Positions 1,330-64,000 of a stretch of DNA of 64,000 nucleotides are shown here, piece by piece (position 1 is the stretch's first letter; each line of letters opens with the position of its first letter). Location: assembly GCA_963668695.2 (NCBI GenBank), contig CAXXLQ010000004.1, positions 1,760,001 through 1,824,000 on the forward strand, in the 5' to 3' direction. This DNA is from Vicinamibacteria bacterium (GTDB lineage Bacteria > Acidobacteriota > Vicinamibacteria > Marinacidobacterales > Marinacidobacteraceae). The notes under the pieces are model-generated. The model saw nothing but the letters and a program-made list of their open reading frames with translations. It was not told the origin of the DNA and did not search any database. The position numbers and the translations under genes are program-made.

Positions 1330-1640
1330 CGCGCGATGCCGGTCGGAGACCGGCGCTCCAGGCCGTCCGAGCCGCCTCATCTGTTGGGGGTACGTGCCGA
1401 GACGGGAGCCATCCCGACGGTTGGGGTCTTCGCCGCCGCGGCCCTGCGGGCCGCTGTGCCGGTGTGAACACCGGCGTTCCAGTGCTTGGCCGCGCTTCAC
1501 GCGGGTCGGCGGTACGACGTTTCCGCTGTCGCGCGCCATCTGGGCGGTCGGCGGTACGCGGTTTCGCGGCCCTGCGGGCCGCGCGTGCCGGGCCCCACCG
1601 GGAGGACTGCCCAGAGGTCGGCGCTCCAAGCCGTCCCCGC
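1330..1640. repeat. Cluster of REP-like hairpins, one carrying the 21-mer insert
   Basis: gccggtcggagaccggcgctcc, gccggtgtgaacaccggcgttcc and gcggccctgcgggccgc hairpins; 21-mer variant at ~1591. Confidence 0.75.
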
Positions 1641-1748
1641 GCTTCTTTCAATCCAGCGATTCGCGACTCTGCCCGCCTTCGGCGGGCTATGCCAAACGGA
1701 GGCCGGCGGACCTAGCCGCCGGCCTCCTGGGGGGGGCGCCTGCCGACC

Positions 1749-4691
1749 CTAGAACTCCAGTCGGAGAGCGAACTGCGCTGCCCGCGGACCGTACGCGGTG
1801 GAAGTCACCTGCCGCGCAGAGCCGAAGCCGCTGGAGTCGATGGTCCCGTTGTAGTTGCCGAAGTTCCCGTGGTTGAGCAGGTTGAAGACCTCGGCGATCG
1901 CAGAGGCTCTCACCGGTCCCAAGTTGAAGACCTTCGAGAGGCGAACGTCAACCTTGTGAAGCGCCTCGCCCAGCAGCGCATGCCTCGGCGCCTCGTTGCC
2001 GGGGCCGGTCCCGATCGTGGAGGGTCCATCGAAGCGATCCAGAATATCCGGATTCACCTGGATCGGATCTCCGAGATTCAGGCGATTCGTGCTCGCGCTC
2101 TTTCCGTACGGCCGGCCCCCGATTGACGTCCGGTAGCGGTTTCCGGAGCCGAAGAAGTACGCGCCCGAGACCGAGAAGTCGTACGGGAGCTGGTAGATCC
2201 CGTTGAGACGGAACGTGTTCCGCTGAAAGTCGAGCGCGGGGCCCCACTCGGCGTCCGGGTCGAACGTGTTGTTGGGGAAGTCACCCCAGCCACGGGTGTC
2301 GTCATTCTTGTAGAAGATGAAGGTGTGCGTCACGTTGACCTGGAGGTTGTCCCGGAACCGACGCCGCAGTCCGCTGGAAACCGCCAGGTAGTCCTGCTTG
2401 CCCGTGCTCTCGATGTAGCGGATCCGGGTGAAGTTGGGATCCAACCGGCCGCGGATGTTGTAGCCCGTCACCGGATCGTAGATCTGGTTCGGGTCCGTGG
2501 CGCGCGGAGTGTTGGTTTCCTTCCAGTAGAGCAGATCCGACTCGAATCCCCACAGAGTGCCGAGCTGCTTCTGGAAACCGACCGAGGTTTGCCAGGTGTA
2601 CGGCAAGGCGAAATTGTGGGCGATCGTCCGCGGGGCCTGCGGGGGAACCGGCACTTCACCGTTCAGGATCTGTTGCGGCGTCACTCCCCGGGTGGGATCC
2701 TGCAAGAAGCCGGGCATCCCGTCGTTCGGGAACGAGTTCACCAGGATGCGCTGGCCGTTGAAGGACTGCTGGCTGAACGTCACGTTCGACGAGCTGATCG
2801 TGTGATAGATGCCCGACCCGCCGCGAATGACCAGATCGCCGCTGCCGCCGACGTCATAGGCGAATCCGGCGCGGGGCGCAATGTTGTTCGTGTCGCGGAT
2901 GTCCCACTTGTAAAGGGAGTCTCCCGCTGACCGGCCGGCGCTTGCTCCGGCGAACGGCGTCATGATGTCGTTGCCCGGTGGCGCGAGAGCACCCCAGTCC
3001 AGGTCGTAGCGGAGCCCGAAGTTCAGGACCAGGTTGTCGTTCACCCGCCAGGTGTCGGCCACCCAGGCGGCCCAGGTCGGCCGGGGGATATCGATAATCC
3101 AGTTGCCGACGTTTTGGCTGAACCGGGCTACCGTGTGGTCGAGCCCGCTCACATCCCAGCAGCCCGGATTGGTGGCGCACTCGATAGGGAAGCGGCGTTC
3201 GAGGTCGGCGGGACGCTCGTTGAAGATGAACTCGCCCCTCTCGAGGAGGTGCCACTCGCCGCCGTCCTTCCAACTCAGGAACTCGCCGCCGACCTTCACG
3301 TCGTGTTCCGTCTTGTCCCAGTTCAACTGGAAACGGGCGGAGAACACATCCTGGGTAAACAACTGCGGGTAGTTCCGCGGTCCACCGAAGGTGATCCCCG
3401 GAAAGACGTAGTTTGGTTGACAACTGGCTTGATCCTGCTGTGGCTGGCCGAAGGTCTGGTCACAACCGCCGACCGAAGTGTCGGCCAGCTTGTTCGACCA
3501 CTCGAAGCCGTTGTAGCCGAGCTTCAGCTCGGTAAAGACCTCCGTGCTCCACAGATGACTCCAGGTGGCGAGCACGTTCGTCGAATCCTGCGTGCGCGCC
3601 CGGGCGTTCGACGGGTGCGCTGAACTCGACAGGCTGTATGCGGTTTCGAAGTCCCAGTAGGAGACCCGGTAGGAGAGCTGATCGTTGTCGGAGGCGGTGT
3701 GATCGACGCGGGCGGTGAAGCTGTTCTGCGTTTCCGGCGTCTCGAACACCCACTCCTGGTTCGGGAGGCGAGCCGGTTGGACGAAAACGCTGCCCGGCTG
3801 CCCCTCGTACTCGTAAGAGAGGAAGTAGTGAACCTTGTCGGTGACGATGGGGCCACCGAAGACGCCACCTATTTGCTGGTTCTCGAACGGCAGCACTTCT
3901 TCGGCGACGTGATCCTCGGCGTTGAAGCGGTCGTCACGGAAGTACCCGTAAATGCTGCCGGTGAAGTCGTTCGTGCCGGAGCGGGTGATGGCGTTCACCT
4001 GCCCTCCGGAGGAGCGGCCCTGCGTAACGTCGAATTGACTCGTGACGATCTGGAACTCGGCGATGGCCTCGCGGCTGAACTTGGGTTGACCAAAGCCGGA
4101 ACTCGCCACCTGCTGGGTGATCTGCTGGCCATCCAGATTGAGCTGGAAGCTTTCGTCGCGAGCGATTCCCGGACGATTGTTGTTGGTGTCGTTGGCGGTG
4201 ATGCCCTTCACCAACAGGGCGAGCTCCATCCAGTTGCGTCCCTGCACCGGCAGATCGTCCATCATGCGGCGATCCACGTTGCCGGCCACTTCCGACGACA
4301 CCAGATCCACGAGGGGTGCTTCAGCGGTGACGGTGATCGTCTCCTCGACCCCCGCGAGCGCCATCTGGATCGTGATGTCGGCGTTTTGCCCTACCAGGAG
4401 CTCGATCTCCGGCAGGATCATGGTGGCGAAGCCGGACAGCGCCGCTTCCACCCGGTAGGTGCCCGGTGGCAACGCCGACGCCCGGAATCCACCCGTGGCA
4501 CCGGTCACGGCCGACTGCTGTCGTCCGGTGTTGTTTTCCACCACCAGGACCGTCACGCCGGGTAGCGCACCGCCGGAGGTGTCTTCCACCGTTCCGGAGA
4601 GCGTCGCGGATGTCTGTGCAACCACGGCGACAGGTAGCAATAGAAAGCCCGCCAAGGCGAGCACCGACCAACGGCCCATCAAATTCTGCAT
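1749..4691 (-). CDS. TonB-dependent receptor, Oar-like, with N-terminal carboxypeptidase-regulatory-like domain
   Basis: Signal peptide, GTVEDTSGGALPGVTV, RSGTNDFTGS plug motif, C-terminal QFALRLEF. Confidence 0.9.
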   Translation of the reverse strand: MQNLMGRWSVLALAGFLLLPVAVVAQTSATLSGTVEDTSGGALPGVTVLVVENNTGRQQSAVTGATGGFRASALPPGTYRVEAALSGFATMILPEIELLVGQNADITIQMALAGVEETITVTAEAPLVDLVSSEVAGNVDRRMMDDLPVQGRNWMELALLVKGITANDTNNNRPGIARDESFQLNLDGQQITQQVASSGFGQPKFSREAIAEFQIVTSQFDVTQGRSSGGQVNAITRSGTNDFTGSIYGYFRDDRFNAEDHVAEEVLPFENQQIGGVFGGPIVTDKVHYFLSYEYEGQPGSVFVQPARLPNQEWVFETPETQNSFTARVDHTASDNDQLSYRVSYWDFETAYSLSSSAHPSNARARTQDSTNVLATWSHLWSTEVFTELKLGYNGFEWSNKLADTSVGGCDQTFGQPQQDQASCQPNYVFPGITFGGPRNYPQLFTQDVFSARFQLNWDKTEHDVKVGGEFLSWKDGGEWHLLERGEFIFNERPADLERRFPIECATNPGCWDVSGLDHTVARFSQNVGNWIIDIPRPTWAAWVADTWRVNDNLVLNFGLRYDLDWGALAPPGNDIMTPFAGASAGRSAGDSLYKWDIRDTNNIAPRAGFAYDVGGSGDLVIRGGSGIYHTISSSNVTFSQQSFNGQRILVNSFPNDGMPGFLQDPTRGVTPQQILNGEVPVPPQAPRTIAHNFALPYTWQTSVGFQKQLGTLWGFESDLLYWKETNTPRATDPNQIYDPVTGYNIRGRLDPNFTRIRYIESTGKQDYLAVSSGLRRRFRDNLQVNVTHTFIFYKNDDTRGWGDFPNNTFDPDAEWGPALDFQRNTFRLNGIYQLPYDFSVSGAYFFGSGNRYRTSIGGRPYGKSASTNRLNLGDPIQVNPDILDRFDGPSTIGTGPGNEAPRHALLGEALHKVDVRLSKVFNLGPVRASAIAEVFNLLNHGNFGNYNGTIDSSGFGSARQVTSTAYGPRAAQFALRLEF

Positions 4692-5410
4692 GGAATTCTC
4701 CTTCTCAAGATCCTACATGGATCACAAGCGAAGCCACAACGATAGGTCTTTCCGCTTCCGTTTGTCAAACAGCAATCAACCCACGCTAAATCAATGATTT
4801 ACGGCGGTCTTGTTCCCCCAGGTCGCTCACTCGAAGGGTCGCTCGAATGCCTGATCCCCGCCATGGAACTCCCGGGTTCCAGCGGCCTATGGTGGAACCC
4901 AGCGGCCCAGTTCTCCCGGTGGGGGCCCGGTGGGGGCTCGAGTGGCGATGCATCCCGCCTGAACCGCCCAAACCTCCATGATCGGGTCCTCCTGCACACC
5001 CTCGCCCGTCATGAAAGTGCATTTCCCAATTGAATTTCCTGGTCTGCGGGGTCGCCTCTACGTTTGGGGTCCGCGCCGAGAACCGTCCCTCCGTTGGGCT
5101 TCTCCACGCCGCGGCCCTCCGGGCCGCTGTGCCGACCCGAGGTCGGCGTTCCCTTGCCGCAGTGCCATCTCGATGGTTGGCATTCGGGCGCGGCTGCATT
5201 TTCACAGCAGCCGGGCGCCTCCCCACTCTCGGCGCTCACCCGGGTTCCACCACCGGCTGCTACCGCCGACCCCAAAACTCCAACCCGCGCGCCCCGCTTC
5301 CCTTCATCGGGCTCCCGCCCCGTCCGTCCATCCGGCCCATTTCCTGGATCGGGGGTCAACCCATCCCCTTTGCGACTCTCGTCCGGTCTCTGCTAGTTTG
5401 CGGGCGGGGA

Positions 5411-10085: not shown

Positions 10086-10367
10086 GAGGGCTCCAACTGA
10101 CCTGACGGGCGCGCGGCGCCCTTCTCCGCACCTCGGCGGGGAAGGGCCCGCCGGCGGGTTGCTGTGTTTCGCCGTCCCCGACCAGGTCCGTGCAAATAGG
10201 AGTGATTAGGACGTGAGTTTCGCGGCCTGCGGCCGCGATGCTGGCCAGTTCTCCCGGTGGGGGCCTGAAGACCGGCGCTCCTGGCCGGAGGCTCGCGAAA
10301 CCCGCAGAGCGCTGCTCGCGTATACGACCCGCGACAGCGCCCGTCGGAGTGGTGTGTTATAACGACG

Positions 10368-15639: not shown

Positions 15640-15664
15640 AGGGCCGTCCCCTCGCTCCAGAACC

Positions 15665-15697: not shown

Positions 15698-15942
15698 ACA
15701 AGCGCCGTGAGGGTGAGAGGCAGGGCGCCTTTCACCGCCCTGCGGGCAGTGGTGCCGACCTGGAGGTCGGCCCAGTTCTCCCGGTGGGGGCTCCCGTGCC
15801 TGCGCGCCATTCTGCGGAGCGGCACTGCGCCATCCCCGCCGGTGCGCCACCTGCTTCCGTAGCGATTTGCGGTTTCGCTGGCCTGCGGCGAGCGGTGCCG
15901 GTGTGAAGCCCCCACCGGGAGAACTGGCCGGCGCTCCCTGAC

Positions 15943-16716: not shown

Positions 16717-19110
16717 TTAACCCGGGACCCAGTACCAGGTGAGCTTCCCGAGGAGCTCCCGGTAGGCCGGCTCCGAGCTTTCCATCCCGAAGGGCCGGCG
16801 CTCGTTGTAGACCACGTAGACGTCGCTGCCCGGGCGGTAGTTCCAGCGGAGCTGGACGTTCCCGGAGAAGTTGTTGTCGTCGTCGTTCCATTGCAGGAGC
16901 CCGCGCACGAAGGCGTCCGGCGACAGCGCCAGCAGCCCCCGCAGCACCACCAGGTTCGTGTTGAAGTCGCCGTTCTCCTGGGGGAGACGGATCTCGCTCC
17001 GCGAGTAGTTCACCTGGAGCCGCACCCGGGGATGCGGCTTGACCGCCACCCCCGGCGAGTACACCCGGAGCCGGCCGTCGAAGAACCCGTTGTTCAGGTG
17101 GAACATCTGGAACGAGAGCGGGCGGCTCTCCGAGGTGTTGACCATCCCCATGAAGTCGTTCGTCGTGTACTGGCCTTCGTCGATTTCCACCCCGTCGCGA
17201 AGTTCGAACGACTCGCTCAGGCCTTCGGTATTCCGCGAGACCGCGAAGAAGAGATGGCTGCCGTCGTTGAAGAGGAAGAACGGCCCGAAGCCGATGTTCT
17301 CGGTCTGGATCGAGCCGTCGGGCTCGGTGATGCGAATCAGGTTGGGGCCCATGAAGATCTGCCGGATCCCGAAGCGGCCGATCCGCGGGCTCCACATCCC
17401 GTCCACCCGGAGCTTCTTCACCCCGGTCCGCGGCACGAACCCCATCTCCGAACGGAATCCCTCGCCGATGTCGGTGTAGTTCGTGAAGAGGTTCCAGCGG
17501 TCGTTCCCCACCTGCCCGTTCAGCCCGAACGCCGAGTCGCGCCCCTCGACGCCCGGCGTCGAACTCCGGGCCGCGAATCCGCCAATCGTCAGCGCCCCGG
17601 TAGGCGCCCAGGAGAAGTCGGCGGCGCCCAGCCGGTGCGAGTCGCCGCCGGCCTCGGTCCGATCGAGCGCCATTACGCCCACCGAACTCCGCCCCAGCAC
17701 GTCGCGCCGGAGGCGCACCGCCGAGAACCCGGTGGCGGGCGACACCCCGTCGAACTCCTGCTGGCGGATGTGGAAGGCGCCGACATCGGTCCGCCCCAGC
17801 TTGCCGGTGATGCGCGCCCCGCCGACGATGGGAATGATCTCGCCGTCTTCGGAGAGCCCGATCCGGCGGCTGAAGAACAGGAAGGTCTCCGGCGGTTCGA
17901 ACGGCCGGCTGGCTTCGCCCACCTGGAAGAGCCCGGCGTTTTCGAGGAAGAACTCGCGCTGCTCGGGGAAGAAGAGCTCGAAGCGGGTCAGGTTCACCTG
18001 CTGCTCGTCGGCCTCCACCTGCGCGAAGTCGGTGTTCACCGTCACGTCCAGGTTCAGGTTGGACCCGAGCCCCACCTTGGCGTCGAGCCCGAGGTCGGCG
18101 GTCCCCGCGCGGTCCTCGCCCTCGCCGGTGACCCCGGCAACTCCGAAGGGCTTCAGCTTGATGCGGCCGCCGGGGTCGGCGCTGTCGATCCCGCGGAGCA
18201 CCCCGTAGGCGGAGATCCGCCACATCGCGTTGAATCCCCAGTCGTTGTCGATCGCGGCCCAGTAGCTCTGCTCGCGGCTGCGCGCCACCTGGCGGCCGAA
18301 GTTGACCCCGAACTCGGGGGTGCCGCTCGGGAACCGGAGCGTCTCGAAGGGGATGATCATCTCGGTGACCCAGCCGCCCTCGGTCCGCCGCGATCCCACC
18401 CGCCAGACGCCGTCCCACTCGAGGTTGAGCACCGCGCCCTCGCCCTGGATGAGTCCGTCCTGGCGGGTCCCCACCGCGTTGGTGGTGAAGAAGAAGGCGC
18501 TCCGGTGGTCGTGGTAGGTGTCGAGCACCACCATGAAGTTGTCGTCGCTCTCCAGGTTGGCGTCGCGCCGGTATTCGCGGGCGACCACCGCGTCCGGGTC
18601 GTCGTCCTCGAGGCGGGCGCCGATCAGCAGCGCGTCCCGCGTGTAGGCGACGAGCACCTCGGTGGCGAAGGTGGGCTCCGCACCCTCCACCGGTTCGCTC
18701 TGGATGAATCCGCCGGCCACCGCCGCGTTCGCCCAGACTTCCTCGTCAAGCCAGCCGTCGGCCACCGGCAGCTCGTCCACGAGCGGCGCGTCGAGCACCC
18801 GTTCGTGCCCCTCCTGGGCGGAGGCGTGGCCCGCCGCGAGGACGAGTGCTAGCAGTCCGCAGACCAAGTGGCGTGAGCGCCGAGAGCGGCCAGTCTCCCG
18901 GTGGGGGCGAGGCGCCCGGCTGACAAGGCGCGCGAGGGAGGAATACCGTGTGTCTTTCGACCGAAGCGCAACGATGAGCGAAGCGTAGCGCCGTTTCTCC
19001 CGGTGGGGGGGCGGTTCAGGCGGGATGGATCGCCGCTCGAACGCCGCGCGACTTGGTCCGCGGGCTGCTCGGATTGCTACTCCTCGAGCGCGAACTCGAA
19101 AACCATCCAT
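16717..19110 (-). CDS. CBM9-like/DUF5916 outer-membrane protein; N-terminus interrupted in frame by a MITE-like element
   Basis: DGWLDEEVW, WDGVW, NTDFAQVEAD, FFPEQREFFLEN, FFSRRIG; start codon uncertain. Confidence 0.8.
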   Translation of the reverse strand: MDGFRVRARGVAIRAARGPSRAAFERRSIPPEPPPHREKRRYASLIVALRSKDTRYSSLARLVSRAPRPHRETGRSRRSRHLVCGLLALVLAAGHASAQEGHERVLDAPLVDELPVADGWLDEEVWANAAVAGGFIQSEPVEGAEPTFATEVLVAYTRDALLIGARLEDDDPDAVVAREYRRDANLESDDNFMVVLDTYHDHRSAFFFTTNAVGTRQDGLIQGEGAVLNLEWDGVWRVGSRRTEGGWVTEMIIPFETLRFPSGTPEFGVNFGRQVARSREQSYWAAIDNDWGFNAMWRISAYGVLRGIDSADPGGRIKLKPFGVAGVTGEGEDRAGTADLGLDAKVGLGSNLNLDVTVNTDFAQVEADEQQVNLTRFELFFPEQREFFLENAGLFQVGEASRPFEPPETFLFFSRRIGLSEDGEIIPIVGGARITGKLGRTDVGAFHIRQQEFDGVSPATGFSAVRLRRDVLGRSSVGVMALDRTEAGGDSHRLGAADFSWAPTGALTIGGFAARSSTPGVEGRDSAFGLNGQVGNDRWNLFTNYTDIGEGFRSEMGFVPRTGVKKLRVDGMWSPRIGRFGIRQIFMGPNLIRITEPDGSIQTENIGFGPFFLFNDGSHLFFAVSRNTEGLSESFELRDGVEIDEGQYTTNDFMGMVNTSESRPLSFQMFHLNNGFFDGRLRVYSPGVAVKPHPRVRLQVNYSRSEIRLPQENGDFNTNLVVLRGLLALSPDAFVRGLLQWNDDDNNFSGNVQLRWNYRPGSDVYVVYNERRPFGMESSEPAYRELLGKLTWYWVPG
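18852..19068 (+). mobile_element. MITE-like structured element, copy 1 (in frame in the DUF5916 gene)
   Basis: Ends gcagtccgcagaccaagt / acttggtccgcgggctgc; core GACAAGGCGCGCGAGGGAGGAATAC...CGACCGAAGCGCAACG. Confidence 0.8.
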
Positions 19111-20552: not shown

Positions 20553-20823
20553 GCAGCCTGTGGATAAAGTGGCGTGAGCGCCGAGAGCGGCCAGTCTCCC
20601 GGTGGGGGCGAGGCCCAGTTCTCCCGGTGGGGGTCCGGCTGACAAGGCGCGCGAGGGAGGAGCCCCTACCGGGAGAACTGGCCCGGGTGTATTTCGCCCG
20701 AAGCGCAACGATGAACGACGCGAAGCGGAGTGTTTCAGCCGGGGCCCCCACCGGGAGAACTGGGGATCGCCGCTCGCGCCCCCACCGGGAGAACTGGGCC
20801 GCGAGACTTTGTCCACAGGCTGC
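20553..20823 (+). mobile_element. MITE-like element, copy 2, with five 21-mer inserts
   Basis: TA|gcagcctgtggataaagt...actttgtccacaggctgc|TA, a TA duplication. Confidence 0.85.
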
Positions 20824-21983: not shown

Positions 21984-22369
21984 TTCTTCGTCCGTCCCGG
22001 CTTGGGTTTCGGCCGCCTGCGCGGAGTGGCGTCGGGAGTTACGTCCCCCTGCGGGGGCGATGCTGGCCGGTTCTCCCGGTGGGGGCCTGAAGACCGGCGC
22101 TCCAGTACGTCCAGTTGGGCAGTCACTTCCGCGGCTTGAACCAGCACCGCCGCCCGGCTGGCGGCGTGCTCCGCGGGCGCGATCTTCCCGGCGTCCTTCT
22201 CGAAGTCGAGTTCCGCCAGGGTGAGCAGGAGCTGGTCCCGCTTCTCCCGGAGCCGCAGCACGGTGCGGTCGGTCTCCTGGCGCGGGGCCGTCTCCGGCCC
22301 GGAGAAGACCGGCTGCAGCACGAAGGCGGTGGCGGCGGCCGCCAGCACCGCGAGCAGGACCAATGTCAC
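21980..22369 (-). CDS. CcmI-N-like small membrane protein; C-terminus contains a REP+21-mer
   Basis: N-terminal TM helix, LAELDFEKDAGKI motif. Confidence 0.65.
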   Translation of the reverse strand: MTLVLLAVLAAAATAFVLQPVFSGPETAPRQETDRTVLRLREKRDQLLLTLAELDFEKDAGKIAPAEHAASRAAVLVQAAEVTAQLDVLERRSSGPHRENRPASPPQGDVTPDATPRRRPKPKPGRTKK

Positions 22370-22387: not shown

Positions 22388-22676
22388 GCAGCCTGTGGAC
22401 AGAGTCGCGTGAGCGCCGAGGCGGGCGAGGCGCCCGGCTGAGAAGGCGCGCGAGGGAGGAGCCCCCACCGGGAGAACTGGCCCGGGTGGTTTTCGACCGA
22501 AGCGCAACGATGAGCGCCGCAATGCGGCGCGGTTCAGCCGGGATGCATCGCCCGCCGTTTCCGGAGCGGGGCGTCAGCACCGCGGAGACCCCGGAGCGGA
22601 AGGGACGGGGGGCGGGGCTACCCGACCCCCATCCCTTCTGGCTCGGGAACTCCGCGTGACTCTGTTCACAGGTTGT
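22388..22676 (+). mobile_element. MITE-like element, copy 3, with an extra ~90-bp internal segment
   Basis: TA|gcagcctgtggacagagtc...gactctgttcacaggttgt|TA. Confidence 0.82.
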
Positions 22677-25748: not shown

Positions 25749-26010
25749 AACGAGAGGATGTTACCACCGGGACTGCCGGTCCACCGGATGGCCCCGCGGG
25801 CAGGGAACGCCGGTCCACTGAGGCGGCGCCGCAGGCTGGGAACGCCCGCCTTCAGACCGGCACCGCGGCCCGCAGGGCACGGCGGTGAATCGGAGCGCCG
25901 GTCTTCAGGCCCCCACCGGGAGAACTGGCCAGCATCGCGGCCAAAGACCGCGAAACTCCCATCGTCGCTCCCCGCATGGCACGGAGGTGAATCGGAACGG
26001 CCGGTCTGAA

Positions 26011-34802: not shown

Positions 34803-34980
34803 GGTGGACCCGATCGTTTGGCCCGATCGTTTGGACAGCCGTCCCCACGCCTTGGCTCTATCGGCGAGACGCGCTTTGCGGCCCTGCGGGCCGCGTGCCG
34901 GCCCCCACCGGGAGAACTGGCCGGAGGTCTGGCGTTCCAAGCCGTCCCCGCGCTTATTGCTGGGCGGCGCTCCCCAGCCC

Positions 34981-43047: not shown

Positions 43048-43248
43048 GGCAACCCATGGACAAAGTCACGCGGCGTTCGAGCGGCGATGCATCCCGGCTG
43101 AAACACTCCGCTGCGCGTCGCTCATCGTTGCGCTTCGGTCGAAATACACCAGGTATTCCTCCCTCGCGCGCCTTGTCAGCCGGGCGCCTCGCCCCCACCG
43201 GGAGAACTGGCGCTCTCGGCGCTCACGTCACCTTGTCCATAGGCTGCC
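43048..43248 (-). mobile_element. MITE-like element, copy 6
   Basis: Ends ggcaacccatggacaaagt / accttgtccataggctgcc. Confidence 0.82.
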
Positions 43249-46826: not shown

Positions 46827-47115
46827 TCAGGGAGACCGCGTACCGCCGAGCGCGCAGAAGCGCGGGGACACCCAGTGCTAGGAGCGCCGGTCTTCAGGCC
46901 CCCACCGGGAGAACTGGCCAGCATCGCCCGCGTAGCGGGCGAAACTCCCATCGCCGAGCGCGCAGAACGGGGACGGCTAGAAGCGCCGACCTCCAGGTCG
47001 GCACAGCCCGCCGCAGGCGGGCGGAGTCGCGTATCGCTGAATTGCGTCGAGCGCGGCCGAGCACGGGACCGCCGACCTCCAGTCCCCCATTGTTGACCTT
47101 GTTGATTCACTCGGA

Positions 47116-51166: not shown

Positions 51167-53349
51167 GGGGCGCCGCGGTGTCGCTCAACAGCCTGTGGAT
51201 GAAGTGGCGTGAGCGCCGAGGCGGGCGAGGCGCCCGGCTGACAAGGCGCATGAGGGAGGAGCCCCCACCGGGAGAACTGGCCCGAGTGTATTTCGACCGA
51301 AATGCAACGCAGAGCGGAACGAAGTGGAGCGGTTCAGCCGGGATGCATCGCTCGCCGAGCCCCCACCGGGAGAACTGGGCCGCGTCACTTCATCTGCAGG
51401 CTGTTTTGGTCGCGGCAATCCTCCCCGCGGCCCTGGCGGCGCAGGACACGTCGCCCGGCGCGGACGAGCGGCTGCTCGCGGCCGCCCGCGACGGGCAAGT
51501 CGAAGTCGTACGGTCCCTCCTGCGGGAGGGGGCGGACGTGAACGCGGCGCGCGGCGACGGGTTGACCGCGCTGCACCTGGCCGCCGAGGGCGGGCATCGG
51601 GCCGTGGCCGATGCGCTGGTCGCGGCTGGCGCCGCGGTCGACGCCGGCACGCGCATCGGTCGCTATACGCCGCTCCAGGTGGCCGCCGAGGGCGGGCATG
51701 GCGCCGTCGTCGCGCGCCTGCTCGAAGCCGGGGCGGACCCGAACGCTCGGACGACGAACAGCGGCGTGACCGCGCTGCACCTCGCCGCCGGCGCCATCGA
51801 TGGCCGGTCGGCCGTGGCCGCGCTGCTCGACCACGGCGCGGATCCGAACGCCCGGGAGGGGTCGGCGGGGCAGACGCCCCTGATCTTCGCGGCGGTCGCG
51901 AACCGGGCCGCTGCCGTGACCGCGTTGCTCGCCGCCGACGCCGACCCCGGCATCACGACCGCCGTGGTCGACGTCCTGCCCGCTCTGGCGCTGGACCGGG
52001 AAGCCAACCGCCGCTTCCGCGACATAATCGGCGCGCCGCCGGAAACGCTCGGACCGTACGGGCCCGAGGTGGACCCGGAAGCCGAATCGCCGGGCGAGCC
52101 CAGCCCGGCCCATGTCCAGGCGGCCGTCCGCGCGCAACGCGACTTTCTCCGCTCCGGCTACGACGTCGGTGACGTGAGCCCGCACTCGCTCGGCCGCGTG
52201 GGGCCCGACTACCCGGGCGGTCCCGACCTCGTGCGCCCGCCCTACCGCGAGGTCCTCGTCGGCCGGACCGGCGCACTGACCGCGCTATTGCACGCCGCCC
52301 GCGAGGGCCATATCGAAGCCGCGACGGCCCTCGCGGGCGGCGGCGCGGACCTGGATCAGGTGAGCGCGGACGGCACCAGCCCACTCCTGATGGCGACGCT
52401 CAACGGCCAGTTCGACCTGGCGCTCGTCCTCATCGAGCGCGGAGCCGATCCCGATCTTGCCGCTTCGACGGACGGCGCCACGCCGCTCTTCGCCGTCCTC
52501 CAGACCCAGTGGGCGCCAAAGTCCAACTATCCGCAGCCGCGCGCGCAGGACTTGCAGGAGGCCGAACACCTGGACGTGCTCCGCGCGCTGCTCGAAGCCG
52601 GGGCCGATCCCAACCCCCGCCTGAACACGCACGCTTGGTACTGGGAATACGGTCTCACCAAGTTGGGGATCGACCTCACCGGGGCGACGCCGTTCTGGCG
52701 GGCCGTCTTCGCCCAGGATCTCGAGGCGATGAGACTGCTCGTCGCGCACGGAGCGGATCCCCACATTCCCACCCGCTGGCCCGAGGTCGGGATGCGGGAG
52801 CGCCGGCAGCAGGACGGCCGCCAGCAGGAGGACTCCGCGCTGCCCTGGATCCCGGAGGGGGCGCCGAACGCCTGGCCGATCCATGCCGCGGCGGGGGGCG
52901 GATATCTGGGACTGGGCGCGTTCAGCGTTCGGAACCGACCCGATCAGTTCATTCCCGCCGTGAAGTACCTGATCGAGGAACTGGGCGCGGACGTGAACCA
53001 GCGAGACTCCTGGCTCTACACCCCGATGCACTACGCGGCTTCCCGGGGCGACAACGAACTCATCGAGTACCTCGTGTCGCAGGGCGGGGACGTCACCGCG
53101 ATCACCCGCCTCGGACAGTCCACCGCCGACATGGCGCGCGGAGGCCGGGCCGGGTTCTTCACCCGCGTCCCGTACCCGGAGACGGTCGAGTTGCTGACCA
53201 GTCTCGGCGCGACGCTCGAGTGTCTCCACACGCACTTCCTGGATACCGGAGACTTCTGCCCCGCCGCGGGCGTCAACGACCCGTGGGCGCCGGCCGCGAC
53301 GGATGAGGAGCAAAAGCGGTCCGATTCCGGGAAGACGGGGTCGCGCTGA
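51163..53349 (+). CDS. Secreted ankyrin-repeat protein; signal peptide contains an in-frame MITE-like element
   Basis: Repeated G.TALH.AA/G.TPL motifs; ATGA overlap with the DUF1552 stop. Confidence 0.88.
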   Translation: MRGAAVSLNSLWMKWRERRGGRGARLTRRMREEPPPGELARVYFDRNATQSGTKWSGSAGMHRSPSPHRENWAASLHLQAVLVAAILPAALAAQDTSPGADERLLAAARDGQVEVVRSLLREGADVNAARGDGLTALHLAAEGGHRAVADALVAAGAAVDAGTRIGRYTPLQVAAEGGHGAVVARLLEAGADPNARTTNSGVTALHLAAGAIDGRSAVAALLDHGADPNAREGSAGQTPLIFAAVANRAAAVTALLAADADPGITTAVVDVLPALALDREANRRFRDIIGAPPETLGPYGPEVDPEAESPGEPSPAHVQAAVRAQRDFLRSGYDVGDVSPHSLGRVGPDYPGGPDLVRPPYREVLVGRTGALTALLHAAREGHIEAATALAGGGADLDQVSADGTSPLLMATLNGQFDLALVLIERGADPDLAASTDGATPLFAVLQTQWAPKSNYPQPRAQDLQEAEHLDVLRALLEAGADPNPRLNTHAWYWEYGLTKLGIDLTGATPFWRAVFAQDLEAMRLLVAHGADPHIPTRWPEVGMRERRQQDGRQQEDSALPWIPEGAPNAWPIHAAAGGGYLGLGAFSVRNRPDQFIPAVKYLIEELGADVNQRDSWLYTPMHYAASRGDNELIEYLVSQGGDVTAITRLGQSTADMARGGRAGFFTRVPYPETVELLTSLGATLECLHTHFLDTGDFCPAAGVNDPWAPAATDEEQKRSDSGKTGSR
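51188..51404 (+). mobile_element. MITE-like element, copy 7 (in frame, 73 codons)
   Basis: Ends acagcctgtggatgaagt / acttcatctgcaggctgt. Confidence 0.82.
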
Positions 53350-53438: not shown

Positions 53439-54801
53439 ATGAAGATCCAGTCGCTTTGCCTGACCTTCGGGTTCGCCGCGGCTCTAGCCGTCTCGGCGTG
53501 CGAGGACGGCGACCGCGCGGCCGTCGCAGAGATGGGGGGAGCGAACGGCGGCGTCGCTAACAGCCGGTGGCAAAACCCACGCGGCGTTCGACCGGCGATG
53601 CATCCCGGCTGAACCACTCCGCTTCGCTCCGTTCTGCGTTGCGTTTCGGTCGAAATACACTCGGTATTCCTCCCTCACGCGCCTTGTCAGCCGGGCGCCT
53701 CGCCCCCACCGGGAGAACTGGCCGGTCTCGGCGCTCACGCGGGTTTCACCACAGGCTGTTAAGGGAGGAGACGACCGCACCGGGCCCTACGATCCGGTGC
53801 CCGGCTGGTGGAAGGTCGCACCTGACCACGACAACGAGTGGGGCTGGGGGCAGGTGGCCGGCGTGGCGGTGGACCACGCGGACCGCATCATCGTCGTCAC
53901 GCGCGGCGACTGGCCCGCGGATGGCTCGGTCCCGCGCGAGGGGCGGTTGCGGCGCACGAACTTCGTTGTCGTCGCGAACGCGAACGGCGAGATCGTCGAA
54001 CAGTGGGCGCAGTGGGACTCGATCTTCACGCTCCCGCACCAGGTGTACATCAGTCCCTACGACCCCGACCGGCACGTGTGGGTGATCGACAGCGGCGGCG
54101 GCGAGGGGCACATGCAGGTCGTCAAGTTCACGAACGACGGCAGCGAGATTGTCATGCGCCTCGGAGAGCGCGACCACCCGAAGACCCGCGAAGCGGCGCG
54201 TGCACGATCCGACTGGGGACCACACACTTACGGCTGGCCATCGAAGCTGGCGTTCCTTCCTGACGGGAGCTTCCTGCTGGCGGACGGGTATTGGAACTCT
54301 CGCATCATCAAGTATTCCGAGGACGGAGAGTTCATCATGCAGTGGGGCGCGCTCGGTACCGGGCCCGGCGAGTTCGATCTCCTGCACGGACTCGCCGTGG
54401 ACGAGGATCGGGTGTACGTCGCCGACCGCCAGAACGAGCGGCTTCAGTTGTTCACGCACGACGGGGAGTTCATCGAGGAATGGCCCGACATCTTCGACCC
54501 CGTGAACATCTGGCTCGATGAGAACGGCGCCGTGTGGGTCCTGGACGCGACGCTGAACCGCGTGCTGAAGTACAACCGGGAGGGCGTCTTGCAGGACTAC
54601 TGGGGCGCATACGGAGCGGCCGGCGCCCTCGGCCGCGGCGTGTGGCCGGGAGGCCTGTCGCTCCCGCACCAGTTGGATATGGACAAGGATGGCAACGTTT
54701 ATATTGCGTCCTACAGTGGCGGCTGGATCAACAAGTTCACCCCAAAGCCGGGCGCGGACCCGGACAGACTTCTGGGTCCCCGGCTGCTCCTGGCGAACTG
54801 A
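53439..54801 (+). pseudogene. NHL-repeat (PAL-like beta-propeller) lipoprotein interrupted by a MITE-like element
   Basis: MKIQSLC...AVSAC lipoprotein leader; removing 53560-53759 plus one TA restores the ORF into KGGDDRTGPYDPVPGWWK; ADGYWNSRI, G.GPGEF...HG, VADRQN. Confidence 0.8.
53560..53759 (-). mobile_element. MITE-like element, copy 8
   Basis: TA|acagccggtggcaaaaccc...gggtttcaccacaggctgt|TA. Confidence 0.88.
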
Positions 54802-55539: not shown

Positions 55540-55692
55540 AAACGCCGACCTCCGGCCAGTTCTCCCGGTGGGAGCCGGCATCGCAGCCCGAGAGGGCTGC
55601 GAAACCGCGTAATGCGGAACCGCGAAGAAGCGCGGGGACGGCTTGGAACGCCGACCTCCGGCCAGTTCTCCCGGTGGGGGCCGGCACCGCTA
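55540..55692. repeat. Two REP units, each with the 21-mer
   Basis: acgccgacctccg[gccagttctcccggtggg(a/g)gc]cggca x2. Confidence 0.8.
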
Positions 55693-60209: not shown

Positions 60210-63106
60210 CGCAGACAATGCCCTCCGACTACCGGGCGATCCACCGGGAGAACGAACGCCGCTACGGGACGGGGGTCCGGGACTACGGAGACAAGCTGCT
60301 GCCGCACCGCTACGGCGACCGCACCCACTTCATCTACGAACTCCTGCAGAACGCGGAGGACGCGCTCGCGCGGCGGCAGGCCTGGACCGGTCCTCGCTCC
60401 GTCCAGTTCCACCTCAGCCCGGGGAACGCCGCCAGTTCTCCCGGTGGGGGCCTCCAGACCGGCACCGCGGGCCACCGGCCCGCGAAACGGGCAGCGCCGT
60501 CCGGCAGGATGATGCCGGCTGCAGCCGAGCTGCGGGTCCGCCATTTCGGCCTTCCGTTCGACGAAGCCGACGTGCGGAGCATCTGCGGCATTGGAGAGAG
60601 CACCAAGGATCCGGGGTTCACCGAGATCGGTCGCTTCGGCATTGGCTTCAAGTCGGTGTACGCCTTCACCGACCGGCCCGAAGTGCATTCCGGCGGGGAG
60701 AATTTCGCCATCGAGCACTACGTGCTGCCGGTGGCGGCGCCCGCGCTGGTCCCCCGCGCCGCGGACGAGACTGTTTTCCTGCTCCCGCTCCGGGGACTCG
60801 CCGACGCCGGCGAGATCCGGCAGGCGGTGCGGCGCCTCGCGCCCCGCGCTCTCCTTTTCCTTCGCGAGATCGAGGAGATCGAGTGGCGGGTCGCGGACGG
60901 CGCCTCGGGCCTCTACCTGCGCGAGACGTCCTCGGCGGACGACGGAGTGCGGCGAGTGAAGCTCGTGGGGGAGGCCGAAGGCCACCGGGAGACCGAACAG
61001 ACCTGGCTGGTGTTCGCACGGGCGGTGCCGGGCCCGCCGCGAGGCGTCGAGCGCCACGTGGAAGTGGCCTTCCGCCTCGGCGAGGAAGGCCGTCCGGAGC
61101 CAGTGCCGGAGCGGGATACGCCGCTCTTCGCGTTTTTCCCCACGACCCTCCCGACGGGTCTTCGATTTCGGGTGCAGGGCCCGTTCCGAACCACTCTGGC
61201 GCGGGACAACGTGCCTCTCGGCGACCCGTGGAACGAAGGCCTCGTCGCGGCGACCGCCGAAGTCCTGACGGGTGCGCTTCGCTGGCTGCGCGATCACAAC
61301 CTTCTCGACGCCACGACGCTCCGGTCGCTGCCGCTCGGCCGCGACCGGTTGCTCGACGGCGCGCTGTTCGCGCCCCTCCGTGAGGCGGTCTCGGCGGCGC
61401 TCCGCCGGGAGCCGCTCCTGCCGCGCTTCGACGGCGGCTTCGTGCCGGGGGAGCGCGCCCGTCTGGCAAGCCCCCGGTGGCTCCGCGACCTCTTCGGGCC
61501 GGAACAGTTGGCCGCGCTCTTCAGGGACGCCGGTGGCGCCGAGTGGCTCACCGACGAGGTGTCGGCAGGGCGCACCGACGAGCTGAGCCGCGTTCTCCAG
61601 GATGAGGTGGGGGTGAGGCCCCTCCGGCTCGACGGCGTTCTCCGCCGTCTGGACGCCGATTTCCTGGAGGCGCAGAGCGAAAGCTGGATTCGGGGGCTCT
61701 ACGAAGCCTTCGGCGAGCACGGCGTGCGGGGCGCCCGGGTCGCCGATCTCCCACTGGTCCGGCTACAGGACGGCGTCCACGTCCCGGCCTTCGTGGAAGG
61801 CCGCCCCGCCGCGTTTCTGCCGGGTCCGCCGGGCGGGGCGCCCACCGATCTGCCCCTCGTCCACGACGACGTCCTCGATTCGCCGGAGGCCGGTAAGTAC
61901 CTGCGCGACCTCGGGCTCCAGGCGCTCGATCCGGTGGAACTGGCGCTCCGCCGGGCGCTCTCGAAGTACCGGTCGGGCCCGGCCGTCTCGGACGAAGCCG
62001 ACTACGCCCGGGACATCGGTGAACTGGCCCGGGCGTATCGGGCCGGTTCGCTGCCCGGGCGCCGCCGGCTCGAAAAGGAGCTGCGGCGGCTGCGCTTCGT
62101 GAGGACGGTGGACGCGAGGGGTGGCCGCCGCCGGCTTTCCCGGCCGGGAGACGCCTTCTACGCGACCGGCCCTCAAAAGGACCTCTTCGGAGGCCTGCCG
62201 GCGGTGCGGTTCGTGGACGACGGTTGTCCGGCGCTCGACGAGGAAGGCGCCCGTCATTTGATGTACGCGTGCGGCGCCCGCCCGCTGCTCGAACCTTTCG
62301 AGGAAAGGCCGACGCTCGCGGACGAAGACCGGGAGGAGATCCGCAGCCGGACGCGGCGTGCCGACCCGGAGGGCGGCATCGCCTGCATCGAAGACTGGAA
62401 CCTCCGGGGACTCGACCCGCTGCTCGCGGGGGTCGTCCGAATGTCACCCGACGAACAGGCGCGGCGCCGGGAGATGCTCCGGCGGGAGTTGGAGGAGCTT
62501 TCCGGCATTCACGACCTCGCGGTCCGTTCGGGGAAGTACCAATGCGACGCGCGCGACGGGTCGCAGGTCTCCGTGCAGGTCCCGGCCGCCTGGATGCGCC
62601 GCCTCACGCGCAGCGCCTGGGCTCCCGAGGCGCGGCCGCTGGTCCAGATCGGCCCGTCCGAGCCTGGCCGCCGGGGTCGGGGCCCGGCGCCGGTCGAAGT
62701 GCGTCCCGGCGCCGGCGGCGGAGTGGACCGCCCCGATGAGGAGGAACGAGAGCGTCGCCTCGCGGTGGAGAGTCAGGCGATCGCCCTCATCCTGGAACGG
62801 GAACGCTGGGTCCGCGCCGCGGAGGACAACCCGGGTTTCGACCTCTACCGTGAGGATGCGACCGGGCAGAAGACCCTGCTCTGCGAAGTGAAGGCGCTCA
62901 GCGGCACGCTCGAAGAGCACCCGGCCCGACTCACCCCGAACGAACTCCGCCGCGCGCTCGAATACGGCGAGAACTACTGGCTGTACATCGTGGAGGACCT
63001 GGCCGGCGACAACCCGCGCATCCTGCGCATCCGGAATCCGGCGGGCGCCGCGGCCCGCTTCGCCTTCGGTCCGGAGTGGCGGGATAGGACACAGCCACCG
63101 CCGTAG
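60206..63106 (+). CDS. Sacsin-like GHKL ATPase with C-terminal DUF3883 (NOV-C) nuclease-like domain
   Basis: HFIYELLQNAEDA, IGRFGIGFKSVY, C-terminal NPGFD...EVK...LTPNE...YWLYIV. Confidence 0.82.
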   Translation: MTQTMPSDYRAIHRENERRYGTGVRDYGDKLLPHRYGDRTHFIYELLQNAEDALARRQAWTGPRSVQFHLSPGNAASSPGGGLQTGTAGHRPAKRAAPSGRMMPAAAELRVRHFGLPFDEADVRSICGIGESTKDPGFTEIGRFGIGFKSVYAFTDRPEVHSGGENFAIEHYVLPVAAPALVPRAADETVFLLPLRGLADAGEIRQAVRRLAPRALLFLREIEEIEWRVADGASGLYLRETSSADDGVRRVKLVGEAEGHRETEQTWLVFARAVPGPPRGVERHVEVAFRLGEEGRPEPVPERDTPLFAFFPTTLPTGLRFRVQGPFRTTLARDNVPLGDPWNEGLVAATAEVLTGALRWLRDHNLLDATTLRSLPLGRDRLLDGALFAPLREAVSAALRREPLLPRFDGGFVPGERARLASPRWLRDLFGPEQLAALFRDAGGAEWLTDEVSAGRTDELSRVLQDEVGVRPLRLDGVLRRLDADFLEAQSESWIRGLYEAFGEHGVRGARVADLPLVRLQDGVHVPAFVEGRPAAFLPGPPGGAPTDLPLVHDDVLDSPEAGKYLRDLGLQALDPVELALRRALSKYRSGPAVSDEADYARDIGELARAYRAGSLPGRRRLEKELRRLRFVRTVDARGGRRRLSRPGDAFYATGPQKDLFGGLPAVRFVDDGCPALDEEGARHLMYACGARPLLEPFEERPTLADEDREEIRSRTRRADPEGGIACIEDWNLRGLDPLLAGVVRMSPDEQARRREMLRRELEELSGIHDLAVRSGKYQCDARDGSQVSVQVPAAWMRRLTRSAWAPEARPLVQIGPSEPGRRGRGPAPVEVRPGAGGGVDRPDEEERERRLAVESQAIALILERERWVRAAEDNPGFDLYREDATGQKTLLCEVKALSGTLEEHPARLTPNELRRALEYGENYWLYIVEDLAGDNPRILRIRNPAGAAARFAFGPEWRDRTQPPP

Positions 63107-63130
63107 CCGCCGGGAGAACAAGGTCCATCA

Positions 63131-64000
63131 ATGCCGCTATCGCCGGGAACGCCGCCAGTTCTCCCGGTGGGGGCCTTCAGACCGTCATCGCCGCCGCAGG
63201 CGGCGCAACCACGCCCGTCCGATCTCTGCGCCACTCCGGCGACCGAACTCGCCCGCCGCATCGCCGGCCGCGAGGTCTCGGCGGTCGAGGTGATGAAGGC
63301 GCACCTCGCCCGGATTCATGACGTCAACCCGCGCCTGAATGCGATCGTCACGCTCCTCCCGGAGGAGGGGCTGCTCGCGGAAGCGGAGAATGCCGACCGG
63401 GCGGTGGCGGCGGGCGACCCGCTCGGGCCGCTCCACGGGCTCCCCGTCGCCCACAAGGACCTGACCCTCACCCGCGGGATCCGGACGACCTTCGGGTCCC
63501 CGATCTTTGCCGACTTCGTCCCCGAGGAGGACGCGCTGATCGTGGAGCGCCTGCGCGCGGCGGGCGCGATCACCATCGGCAAGACGAACACCCCGGAGTT
63601 CGGTGCCGGCTCGCAGACTTTCAACCCTGTCTTCGGCCCCACCAGGAACCCCTGGGACGAGACGAAGACCTGCGGGGGGAGCAGCGGGGGCGCCGCGGTG
63701 GCGCTCGCGACCGGGATGGTCCCGATCGCCGACGGCAGCGACTACGGCGGCTCGCTCCGCAACCCGGCGAGCTTCTGCGGGGTCGTTGGCCTCAGGCCCT
63801 CGCCCGGCCGGGTTCCGGTGTGGCCCAACGAGACCCCCTGGTACCCGGTCCCGGTGCAGGGGCCGATGGCGCGGAGCGCCGCCGACGCCGCCCTCATGCT
63901 GAGCGCCATCGCGGGGCCGGATCCCCGGGCGCCGCTTTCGTTGCCGGATCCGGGCGAGGTCTTCCGGCGCCCGCTCGACCGGGACTTTCGGGATGTCCGG
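63131..64000 (+). CDS. Amidase (AS family), partial; N-terminus includes a REP+21-mer
   Basis: GPLHGLPVAHKD, GKTNTPEFG, CGGSSGG, GSDYGGSLRNPA; runs off the window end. Confidence 0.9.
   Translation, partial: MPLSPGTPPVLPVGAFRPSSPPQAAQPRPSDLCATPATELARRIAGREVSAVEVMKAHLARIHDVNPRLNAIVTLLPEEGLLAEAENADRAVAAGDPLGPLHGLPVAHKDLTLTRGIRTTFGSPIFADFVPEEDALIVERLRAAGAITIGKTNTPEFGAGSQTFNPVFGPTRNPWDETKTCGGSSGGAAVALATGMVPIADGSDYGGSLRNPASFCGVVGLRPSPGRVPVWPNETPWYPVPVQGPMARSAADAALMLSAIAGPDPRAPLSLPDPGEVFRRPLDRDFRDVR

Follow-up and report, generated by a model that had tools for sequence, protein, structure and literature searches.

What kind of element is a sequence of 21 nucleotides that recurs, nearly letter for letter, inside the other repeats of a bacterial genome, and by what process does it come to lie there? 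The question is raised by a stretch of 64,000 nucleotides from a Vicinamibacteria bacterium (assembly GCA_963668695.2, contig CAXXLQ010000004.1, C4 below; C4:1760001-1824000, hereafter the window), in which a sequence-only reading had noticed about 27 copies of a fixed 21-mer in both orientations, each within a larger repeat, and had proposed that they arose in many independent events. The genome under study (G000: 4.10 Mb, 67.5% G+C, 4 contigs, 91.7% complete, 9.3% contamination) was compared with related genomes, which bear the other G numbers (G001, G004, G008 and so on) and among which G001 is the sister of G000. Precise insertions of the unit in place do recur, in orthologous sites, in haplotypes, in genes and on the tree of one host repeat family, and the proposal of many independent events is thereby borne out.

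The unit, its hosts and its junctions

The 21-mer is GCCCCCACCGGGAGAACTGGC, with a 16-nt core CCCACCGGGAGAACTG; total unit length varies from 20 to 22 nt, and a body of about 20 nt (NCCCCCACCGGGAGAACTGG) is defined by two asymmetric ends, GCCCCC... and ...ACTGG, which are not inverted repeats. In the window 23 matches are found at up to two mismatches, against 0.00 expected from 100 dinucleotide shuffles, and 25 at up to three; the copies near 18890 and 20590 are a one-base-deletion form (GCCAGTCTCCCGGTGGGGGC) that mismatch searches miss and that was read directly, so that all 27 of the positions named earlier hold the unit, on both strands. The whole of G000 has 1,634 copies at up to three mismatches (599 exact, 648 with one, 327 with two, 60 with three), and the information profile of 1,683 sites is a conserved block of about 21-23 nt with sharp borders. 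Among the copies, 1,325 match the 16-nt core exactly and 271 with one mismatch, where control words give 0 and 0.4, and 172 of those 271 share a single A-to-G variant, GAGGACTG. Such a cassette of 20-21 bases is one of the smallest mobile-looking DNA elements seen.

Core identity is 0.997-0.999, as compared with 0.73-0.86 at flanking positions of the host repeat in the same copies, in line with the earlier statement that the unit is more conserved than its hosts. With hosts 10-15% diverged, either the units are much younger than the hosts or they are kept constant by constraint, and the identity of the core across genera argues for constraint. The absence of a stop codon from all six frames, also claimed earlier, is correct by reading, and three of the frames are found in real proteins (GPPPGELV, SSPGGG and GPHRENW). 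The unit shows no distinctive fold of its own (-1.4 kcal/mol, z +0.54, with 136 of 200 shuffles folding too), contains neither of the tetranucleotides GTAG and CGTC, and has no replication-strand bias, the counts by replichore and strand being 394/372 and 317/351.

All 27 window copies lie either in hairpins of the repetitive extragenic palindromic (REP) type or in a miniature inverted-repeat transposable element (MITE) of c.180-270 bp with ends CAGCCTGTGG...CCACAGGCTG. The sequence-only statement that every copy sits in a repeat thus holds for the window and fails for the family, three copies of which lie in conserved protein-coding genes. When the copies in G000 are assigned to hosts from the six bases that precede the unit, slots of this one MITE account for at least 1,259 of the 1,634 (tandem second copies counted) and REP-type hairpins for at least 111; among 1,659 copies with up to two core mismatches, both 40-nt flanks are repeated at least three times in 1,334 and both are unique in 48, most of which are short REP contexts or chance near-matches. 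The empty MITE consensus, of 179 nt, folds as a single long hairpin (DNA, -61 kcal/mol) in which internal loops or bulges mark slots S2, S3 and S4, while S1 is part of a small stem at the apex. At least six MITE positions are occupied (S1-S5 and one after CAGCCGGG), where at least five had been counted before. Other genera have this MITE too, with the unit in different slots and orientations, and the unit is also found in further types of REP and centrally in a GCGGCGC/GCGCCGC palindrome. At one locus of G018 (L098, C1:61900-62500) the unit alternates with a 23-nt REP-like piece in a tandem array that has three or more periods of 44 bp.

Filled and empty alleles occur at each host slot genome-wide in G000, and the exchange is regular. 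At S1, GGAGGA is followed by ATA when empty and by the 21-mer when filled; at S2, GGCCGA is followed by AC or by G-CCCCCACCGGGAGAACTGG; S3 (left CAGCCGG, empty GC) and S5 (left GAACCGC, empty GC or GT) are filled as S2 is, with A or C respectively as the first base; and at all four the net change is +18. The net change is +19 at S4 (left CGCCTC, empty A, G or C) and in the REP slot (left CTTCAG, empty A), both of which are filled by a 20-mer. The earlier estimate of about 3 bp replaced for a net gain of 18, in some cases 19, was correct, and can be put more exactly as a body of 20 nt that takes the place of one to four target bases, with no target duplication; tandem units have a period of 18. 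Both pairs of alleles that had been set side by side are real, gggagga/ata/ccgag (about 53660, minus strand) with gggagga/21-mer/ccgag (51261), and gtgtgaa/cac/cggcg (1461) with gtgtgaa/21-mer/cggcg (15901). The bases to the left of the unit vary among slots (GGA, CGA, CGG, CTC, CGC, CAG, CCG), and the unit itself contains CACCGG, identical to one REP arm.

Gains in place among orthologues, haplotypes, genes and MITE copies

Three species of the genus share synteny over the window, with genes 90-97% identical. The REP at 34901 is filled in G000, while the orthologous REPs of G004 and G008 read gccg/A/ccggagg, which identifies this copy as a gain in place of +19; near 39700-39850, an orthologous MITE that is without units in G000 contains two in G008. 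The hosts move as well. G001, G004 and G008 lack the host MITEs of 18843-19075 and 20530-20832 at their orthologous sites, and the closest species, G001, also lacks that of 22374-22682, so that the MITE has moved since the species split. Within the assembly, parts of C4 have a second haplotype in contigs C1 (144 kb; 99.3-99.7% identity) and C3 (31 kb; 97.6-99.7%), probably from a co-assembled strain, which fits the contamination figure. Around the slots that differ, the haplotypes are about 99% identical. Two adjacent S1 slots have ATA in C3 and the 21-mer in C4, with four other differences over about 420 nt; one S3 slot has GC in C3 and A plus 19 nt in C4; a tandem set in C4 has one extra 18-nt unit relative to the other haplotype, in a sequence variant unlike that of its neighbour; and C1 is without the stretch between two units of one MITE. 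Some MITE copies (G010 L179; G000 C1 at about 94500) consist of two terminal parts joined via a single unit, and such reduced forms suggest that units in separate slots of a single MITE recombined and the DNA between them was lost.

Conserved genes provide targets of a different kind. When G000 was screened for copies that have unique flanks and a coding periodicity to either side, three rows came back, which reduce to one real site, seen on both haplotypes, and one 3-mismatch chance match. The real site is in an RND-type transporter, which reads GAGCCCG/CG/CGGGAT in the G004-type genome, G008, G010 and G009 (empty in all four) and GAGCCCG/GCCCCCACCGGGAGAACTGG/CGGGAT in G000 and its sister G001, so that the +18 change is a gain in the common ancestor of these two. 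The two other genic copies are in low-copy genomes. In mfd of G012, LLAALG-GPPPGELV-RPV stands where 12 of the 14 genomes compared have LLAALG-ET-RPV or similar, again +18, and G010 has a degenerate +12 version at the same site; coaBC of G010 has gained +18 at a site that is empty in 13 of the 14. All three insertions are in frame, across three different reading frames of the unit, and the three coding targets resemble tiny palindromes. A 20-nt cassette that is open in six frames and tolerated in proteins would be a natural source of small in-frame insertions. The coaBC gene of G000 (C4:2098515-2098895, L236) carries, in the loop region where G010 has the unit, an unrelated insertion of 36-39 nt that is C-rich and internally repeated (PGPGTGPDSPPDSPPGQTQG).

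The MITE family itself offers a record of recurrence. From 423 copies parsed, 422 were usable, and a FastTree phylogeny was built after removal of the units. The unit fills S1 in 196 copies and S2 in 182, and each of the four combinations is well represented. On the tree S1 requires at least 112 changes of state, compared with a shuffled mean of 140.1 (0.80), and S2 at least 105, compared with 135.8 (0.77), while 19 control columns of single-nucleotide polymorphisms (SNPs) of similar frequency, which themselves took part in tree building, require 0.10-0.57 of the shuffled expectation. Linkage tells the same story: r2 between slot and SNP is at most 0.04 for S1 and 0.07 for S2 over all SNPs, where SNP pairs average 0.06-0.20, and slot state is unlinked to SNPs 6-10 nt away, including a phylogenetically stable SNP at 10 nt. 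The slots do correlate with one another (phi 0.25-0.51), even when 85 nt or more apart, and a filled S4 is almost confined to copies whose S3 is filled too (111 copies versus 2). Divergence from the consensus rises from 0.107 to 0.130 to 0.148 in copies with none, one or both of S1 and S2 filled (rho 0.38, p 3e-16). The simplest reading is that units build up in resident MITE copies over time, at rates specific to each slot.

A 17-nt core is present in 21 of 41 related genomes and in 5 of 16 genera, all of one Vicinamibacteria family of sponge-associated bacteria, and in none of the 16 genomes of two sister families. Copies of this 17-mer number 1,296 in G000 and from 5 to 636 in the other genomes of its genus, all 15 of which have it, and four further genera are represented by G018 (221), G019 (36), G023 (10), G016 (4) and G020 (1). 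Public records with the unit are metagenome-assembled genomes (MAGs) titled Candidatus Marinacidobacterium, Candidatus Poriferihabitaceae, Vicinamibacteria bacterium or Acidobacteria bacterium, several of them from sponge metagenomes; scattered single matches in unrelated taxa are taken as chance, and the two single matches among viral contigs, in the whole collection, are uninformative. An artefact of assembly, adapter or primer can be regarded as already refuted, its probability being practically nil: independent MAGs of other projects and years carry the unit, as do all 15 other genomes of the genus and short-read contigs of separate studies, and it lies in frame within conserved genes. Positions 15000-24999 of the window are present in the 20 runs listed, from eight studies, seven of them at 0.87 or more of the sampled words. 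Four runs were compared as Logan contigs, which are broken at repeats and inform on unique parts and on MITE pile-up. Run contigs from two studies differ from unique window parts by 0-4 letters per roughly 0.6-1.7 kb, and short-read depth on MITE bins reaches 30,000-50,000 compared with about 200 alongside, a 150- to 250-fold pile-up. One run has a contig that joins 22384 to 22680, that is, without that MITE, as in G001, and the RNA run X16 has depth on MITE bins, for which DNA carry-over is a possible source.

The window copies and their hosts are collected below; the copies were placed by mismatch-tolerant motif search and their contexts then read. The window also contains a 2.2-kb insertion sequence (26000-28211) with perfect 24-nt inverted ends, located in the centre of a REP-like palindrome (GCCGGTCTGAA...TTCAGACCGGC), whose open reading frame (ORF) encodes a 640-aa protein of DDE_Tnp_1 type (26096-28018, minus strand, 28.9 bits); this region is unaligned to the orthologous stretches of G001, G004 and G008.

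Copies of the unit in the window, with host repeats, in window coordinates
Feature	Position	Strand	Context or comparison
Empty REP, gccggtgtgaa/ca/ccggcg, strong hairpin	1455..1480	+	Same type as REP at 15908
Unit, 3 mismatches, GGCCCCACCGGGAGGACTGCC	1591..1611	+	REP, gcgtgccg/unit/cagaggtcggcg
Unit, MITE slot S2, then 11-nt partial duplicate of own start	4906..4926	-	Compared with G008
LE copy (longer element, next section) inside MITE, left end degenerate, coordinates approximate	4966..5214	+	From C4:1764971 and C4:1765214
Unit in REP, ggtcttcag/unit/cagcatcgc	10244..10264	-	
Unit, REP-type context	15771..15791	-	
Unit in REP, gccggtgtgaa/unit/cggcg	15908..15928	+	G004 orthologue filled too
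Unit, 20-nt one-base-deletion variant, MITE slot S4	18889..18908	-	Direct reading
Unit, 3 mismatches, MITE slot S5	18990..19010	-	
Host MITE with five units	20554..20822	+	Missing at G001, G004, G008 orthologous sites
Unit, 20-nt one-base-deletion variant, MITE slot S4	20590..20609	-	Direct reading
Unit, MITE slot S3, variant starting ACCCCC	20614..20634	-	
Unit, MITE slot S1	20662..20682	+	
Unit, MITE right arm after CAGCCGGG	20744..20764	+	Mirror position of S3
Unit, MITE slot S2	20778..20798	+	
Unit in REP	22066..22086	-	
Host MITE, S1 filled, S2 with 90-nt repeat	22389..22674	+	G004 orthologue: 21-mer in S2
Unit, MITE slot S1	22461..22481	+	
Unit in REP	25909..25929	+	
Unit in REP	34901..34921	+	G004 and G008 orthologous REPs empty
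Unit, GAGGACTG variant, MITE slot S2	37349..37369	-	
Unit in REP	38767..38787	-	
Unit, MITE slot S4	43191..43211	+	MITE reversed
Unit in REP	46898..46918	+	
Host MITE, S1 and S2 filled, S3/S4 empty	51189..51403	+	
Unit, MITE slot S1	51261..51281	+	
Unit, MITE slot S2	51359..51379	+	
Host MITE, S1 empty, S4 filled	53561..53758	-	Empty S1 ggagga/ata/ccgag, minus strand, ~53655-53670
Unit, MITE slot S4	53702..53722	+	
Unit in REP	55555..55575	-	
Unit in REP	55661..55681	-	
Unit in REP	60431..60451	-	
Unit in REP	63154..63174	-	

A longer element with the same ends, and how the unit may move

The sequence-only reading had suggested a search for loci where the two halves of the 21-mer flank a larger element, and this search was productive. 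It led to the longer element (LE), which starts GCC-CCCACCGGGAGAA/ACCCTCATGATCGGGTCC and ends ...GCATTTTCACAGC/AACTGGC, and which has the left 16 nt of the unit at one border and the right 5-7 nt at the other. Complete copies number 15, of which 13 are distinct; their ends lie 141-371 nt apart, and they sit in the unit's own slots. G000 has 28 copies (about 28-45 by different counts), three other high-copy species have 52, 30 and 29, and five others have 1-9; LE is found only in the genus of G000, with a variant spelling in G011 and G014, and it was not found in G018, G019 or G009 (221, 36 and 83 units). In low-copy genomes its left terminus diverges along with its body. A large autonomous element between the halves was also considered and rejected, since left and right ends are separated either by 141-371 nt or by over 26 kb and an ORF is absent from every copy.

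LE has a conserved 5' hairpin, CGGGAG-AA-ACCC-[TCATGATC]-GGGT-C-CTCCTG, in which the left terminus pairs with LE-internal bases, and an internal REP. Compensatory change in 2 of the 26 pairs of the consensus fold does not amount to a structured RNA; Rfam returns no family at gathering score in the window, and for eight LE loci at E<=1 it returns only a neighbouring tRNA and a chance match. One LE 5' block (G006 L151) stands directly upstream of a small gene that, by eye, we take to resemble one for a HicB-type antitoxin, a placement that is probably coincidental. Slot S2 has yet another occupant in some MITEs, a 90-nt repeat (cttccggagcggggcg...ggctcggg) that takes the place of the 21-mer at window positions 22556-22655 and also occurs at C4:358057-358431 and C4:1628937-1629491, single or in tandem with a period of 90, so that this slot accepts at least three different inserts.

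That the unit and LE share both ends is the main reason for positing an activity that recognises these ends. The reading we favour, at about an even chance of being right, is that the 21-mer is an ends-defined, very small non-autonomous mobile unit moved in trans. We count as demonstrated that it enters resident DNA in place, replacing one to four target bases with no target duplication; that its targets are mostly REP hairpins and the fixed slots of the long-hairpin MITE, and occasionally genes, in frame; and that the same two ends also bring 140-370 nt of cargo, as LE, into the same slots. Beyond this, a trans-acting, sequence-specific DNA insertion activity belonging to none of the families tested may recognise the ends of the unit, the need for intact ends may keep its sequence letter-perfect across genera, and copies would build up in resident repeats with time. 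The earlier idea of a writer survives to the extent that a sequence-specific process is the best reading, and finds no support in the particulars named with it, which were reverse transcription, REP-associated tyrosine transposase (RAYT) or other HUH enzymes, IS110 and action on hairpin DNA.

A number of observations weigh against mobility in trans. Hits to RVT_1 (PF00078) are lacking in G000, an absence that is not proven in a genome 91.7% complete; Y1_Tnp (PF01797) has no hit in G000, nor in the high-copy G004 or in G018 and G019, and the weak partial hits in 13 of the 15 other genomes of the genus have counts that do not follow those of the unit; no TnpB zinc ribbon exceeds the cut-off in G000; and nothing ties to the unit the IS110 (1 hit), DDE_Tnp_1 (7), rve (1 over the cut-off) and tyrosine recombinases (6) that this genome does encode. 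IS110 ranges from 0 to 11 copies across 28 genomes with no co-occurrence with unit numbers, and it has no hit in G019, G003 and G011, where units are present. The sole IS110 element of G000 (C4:~482100-483870) has entered a REP at GACCGGAGGTC^CGGCG, a point that 8-10 nt separate from the slot taken by the unit in REPs, and the IS110 copies of G018 are not located in units. These results count against a writer templated by reverse transcriptase, against a RAYT or HUH origin and against an IS110 footprint. To our knowledge the elements that transposases handle are all far larger than 20 bp, a length that also does not suffice for a double-stranded circle. No consensus of the target emerged, and a rule of insertion at hairpin apices was tried and rejected: over 414 distinct flank classes the flank stems average 1.91 bp compared with 1.96 in re-paired flanks, stems of 4 bp or more making up 6.5% compared with 9.7%, so that the proposed action on hairpin DNA finds no stem enrichment to support it. 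Each slot has its own fixed junction variant, which is expected if a filled allele is taken over from the corresponding slot of another copy. With its 246 columns the MITE tree is short and poorly resolved, which inflates the counts of state changes, and divergence from the consensus is a mere proxy for age. Selection on a host function could instead account for a sequence kept letter-perfect from genus to genus. Finally, LE may be the unit with cargo, or the unit may be LE reduced to its ends, and in either case the two ends are what they share.

A more specific proposal, put forward tentatively and with more doubt than conviction, is that a DNA-insertion enzyme or ribonucleoprotein of a new type in these sponge symbionts recognises the two short asymmetric ends and pastes the 20-nt cassette, or its ends plus up to about 370 nt of cargo, removing one to four bases. 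If this were true, it would constitute a mode of transposition with a minimal substrate far smaller than any known, which may also underlie the small dispersed repeats of cyanobacteria, and the enzyme, if it exists, would provide a compact sequence-insertion activity.

One alternative dispenses with a dedicated enzyme and has filler copied from the abundant units, by template switching or microhomology-mediated repair, at broken or stalled GC-rich repeats and hairpins, with a spread that would feed itself once the unit was common. The lack of a candidate enzyme among the families searched, the few target bases lost per event, the GC-rich targets with CCG/CGG at the junction, the identity of the unit's CACCGG with a REP arm and the recombination between units seen as deletion in haplotype C1 and in G010 are all consistent with such repair, which we nonetheless consider unlikely: filler is usually ragged, yet the borders here are near-constant (20-22 nt) in unrelated targets including three genes; an unconstrained pool of templates should drift, yet the 17-nt core is identical across genera; and LE moves with the same ends. 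Decidedly unlikely is the possibility that units are footprints of LE, whose core would leave through a precise internal join (GAGAA/ACCC ... CAGCA/ACTGG), with the left 16 nt and right 5 nt remaining. LE does have exactly these termini and the same slots, its left terminus diverges with its body in low-copy genomes as if native to it, the unit's GGGAG pairs with LE-internal CTCC in the conserved 5' hairpin, and one locus (C4_+_154518) resembles an LE tail-to-head junction; but units are present in genomes, some of other genera, that gave no LE (G018, G019, G009), which weakens this reading and with it the earlier notion of an excision scar, and there are about 1,600 units to some 28-45 LE copies, no ORF in any LE copy, and a 2-nt repeat (AA) alone available for the proposed join.

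Selection may instead maintain the unit as a functional motif, for instance a site bound by protein or RNA or a signal of the uptake type, its spread being a by-product. A 17-mer that is perfect across genera in host repeats 10-15% different speaks for such selection, and still the chance of this explanation seems small, given that new copies are +18/+19 indels and not point mutations, that related genomes range from 1 to 1,296 copies, that there is no replichore bias and that the motif is tolerated in proteins in three reading frames. A very small chance is left to an ordinary module of mosaic repeats, entering each slot once and then distributed by homologous gene conversion among REP and MITE paralogues and by subfamily amplification. 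Junction variants are indeed slot-specific and constant within a slot, hundreds of similar MITE copies are possible donors, and low linkage disequilibrium among MITE SNPs suggests exchange between copies. Against this stand the insertions in three single-copy genes, which have no homologous filled donor and which gene conversion alone cannot explain, the occurrence of the unit in at least eight unrelated host contexts in G000 and in other slots in other genera, and the behaviour of slot state, unlinked to a stable SNP 10 nt off yet correlated with slots 85 nt or more away. Gene conversion is contradicted as a complete explanation and may contribute to spread among MITE copies.

Small repeats of other bacteria

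The closest known kind of element is the small dispersed repeats (SDR1-8) of the Nostocaceae, which would make the unit the same kind of thing and this example a new one. As Elhai et al. are said to have described in 2008, the SDRs of Nostoc and Anabaena are 21-27 nt long, near-identical, highly repeated and present as precise insertions in other repeats, and encode no protein. We know of no mechanism reported for them since 2008. The likeness lies in size and number, the unit having 20-22 nt, 1,634 copies and a core exact in 1,325 of them, set beside the 21-27 nt given for SDRs, and in its appearance as a precise insertion, often inside other repeats, among orthologues and haplotypes. The host, in contrast, belongs to the Acidobacteriota and not the Nostocaceae, and its repertoire of host repeats is unrelated, so that the two are analogues at most, compared by description only. 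For the unit a cargo-bearing LE, in-frame insertions in housekeeping genes and strain-level polymorphism are documented. According to citing papers, SDR5 may use the HIP1 palindrome as insertion site and SDRs are some 20 bp long and might be mobile (PMC5861425, PMC2884548); three others also cite the Nostocaceae work (PMC3116915, PMC2703918, PMC3733652). The earlier statement that no named element has these properties was too strong, given these SDRs.

Other families resemble the unit in part. The bacterial interspersed mosaic elements (BIMEs) of E. coli and the Neisseria intergenic mosaic elements (NIMEs) consist of short fixed motifs in variable mosaics, and the dRS3 of NIMEs, of 20 bp, is an insertion target of larger elements. 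The unit is likewise a short fixed motif combined with other repeat modules, but its gains occur in place, at a junction fixed at +18/+19, and reach unique genes as well; we know of no in-place gain of BIME or NIME motifs and of none that has landed in a unique gene. Rickettsia palindromic elements (RPEs) can sit in frame in conserved proteins, and in this the unit is like them. REPs and REPINs, with their RAYTs, are also short, intergenic, highly repeated and hairpin-associated, and REP-type hairpins are among the preferred hosts of the unit. A REP bears a GTAG or CGTC tag at one end (PMC3733652); the unit differs in having no fold of its own, no tag and no Y1_Tnp hit in G000, and it inserts into REPs without being one. 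MITEs measure 70-300 bp with 15-30-bp terminal inverted repeats (PMC3733652). The unit is non-coding and of high copy number as they are, but has 20 nt, asymmetric ends and no duplication, with one to four target bases removed, where MITEs usually duplicate their target.

IS110/IS1111 elements are site-specific, lack inverted repeats and target REPs, as the G000 copy does, but insertion lies about 8-10 nt from the unit slot and their copy numbers do not track the units. Palindrome-associated transposable elements of IS200/IS605 type differ in that G000 has no Y1 hit and no fixed tetra- or pentanucleotide stands to the left of the unit; DNA uptake sequences in that the unit arises as +18/+19 indels and varies from 1 to 1,296 copies within one family; and retroelement-templated insertion in that RVT_1 has no hit in the 91.7%-complete G000. 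Since REP/RAYT, MITE, IS110, IS200/IS605 and retroelement systems each fail a defining feature that was tested, the unit is not a member of these described families. A literature search by motif letters found no description of this repeat, its only match being a 15-mer in an unrelated zebrafish paper, and a search by lineage names gave one genome note. The cyanobacterial SDRs are the only precedent found.

The spread of the smallest repeats in bacteria is a long-standing question, which this case makes testable, with before-and-after alleles in repeats, in genes and in co-existing strains. The cargo-bearing LE defines which ends matter, and related genomes with from 1 to about 1,300 copies allow phylogenetic profiling for the gene responsible. 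Set beside the SDRs of the Nostocaceae, this example is new and unusually well documented, and its kind is not unprecedented.

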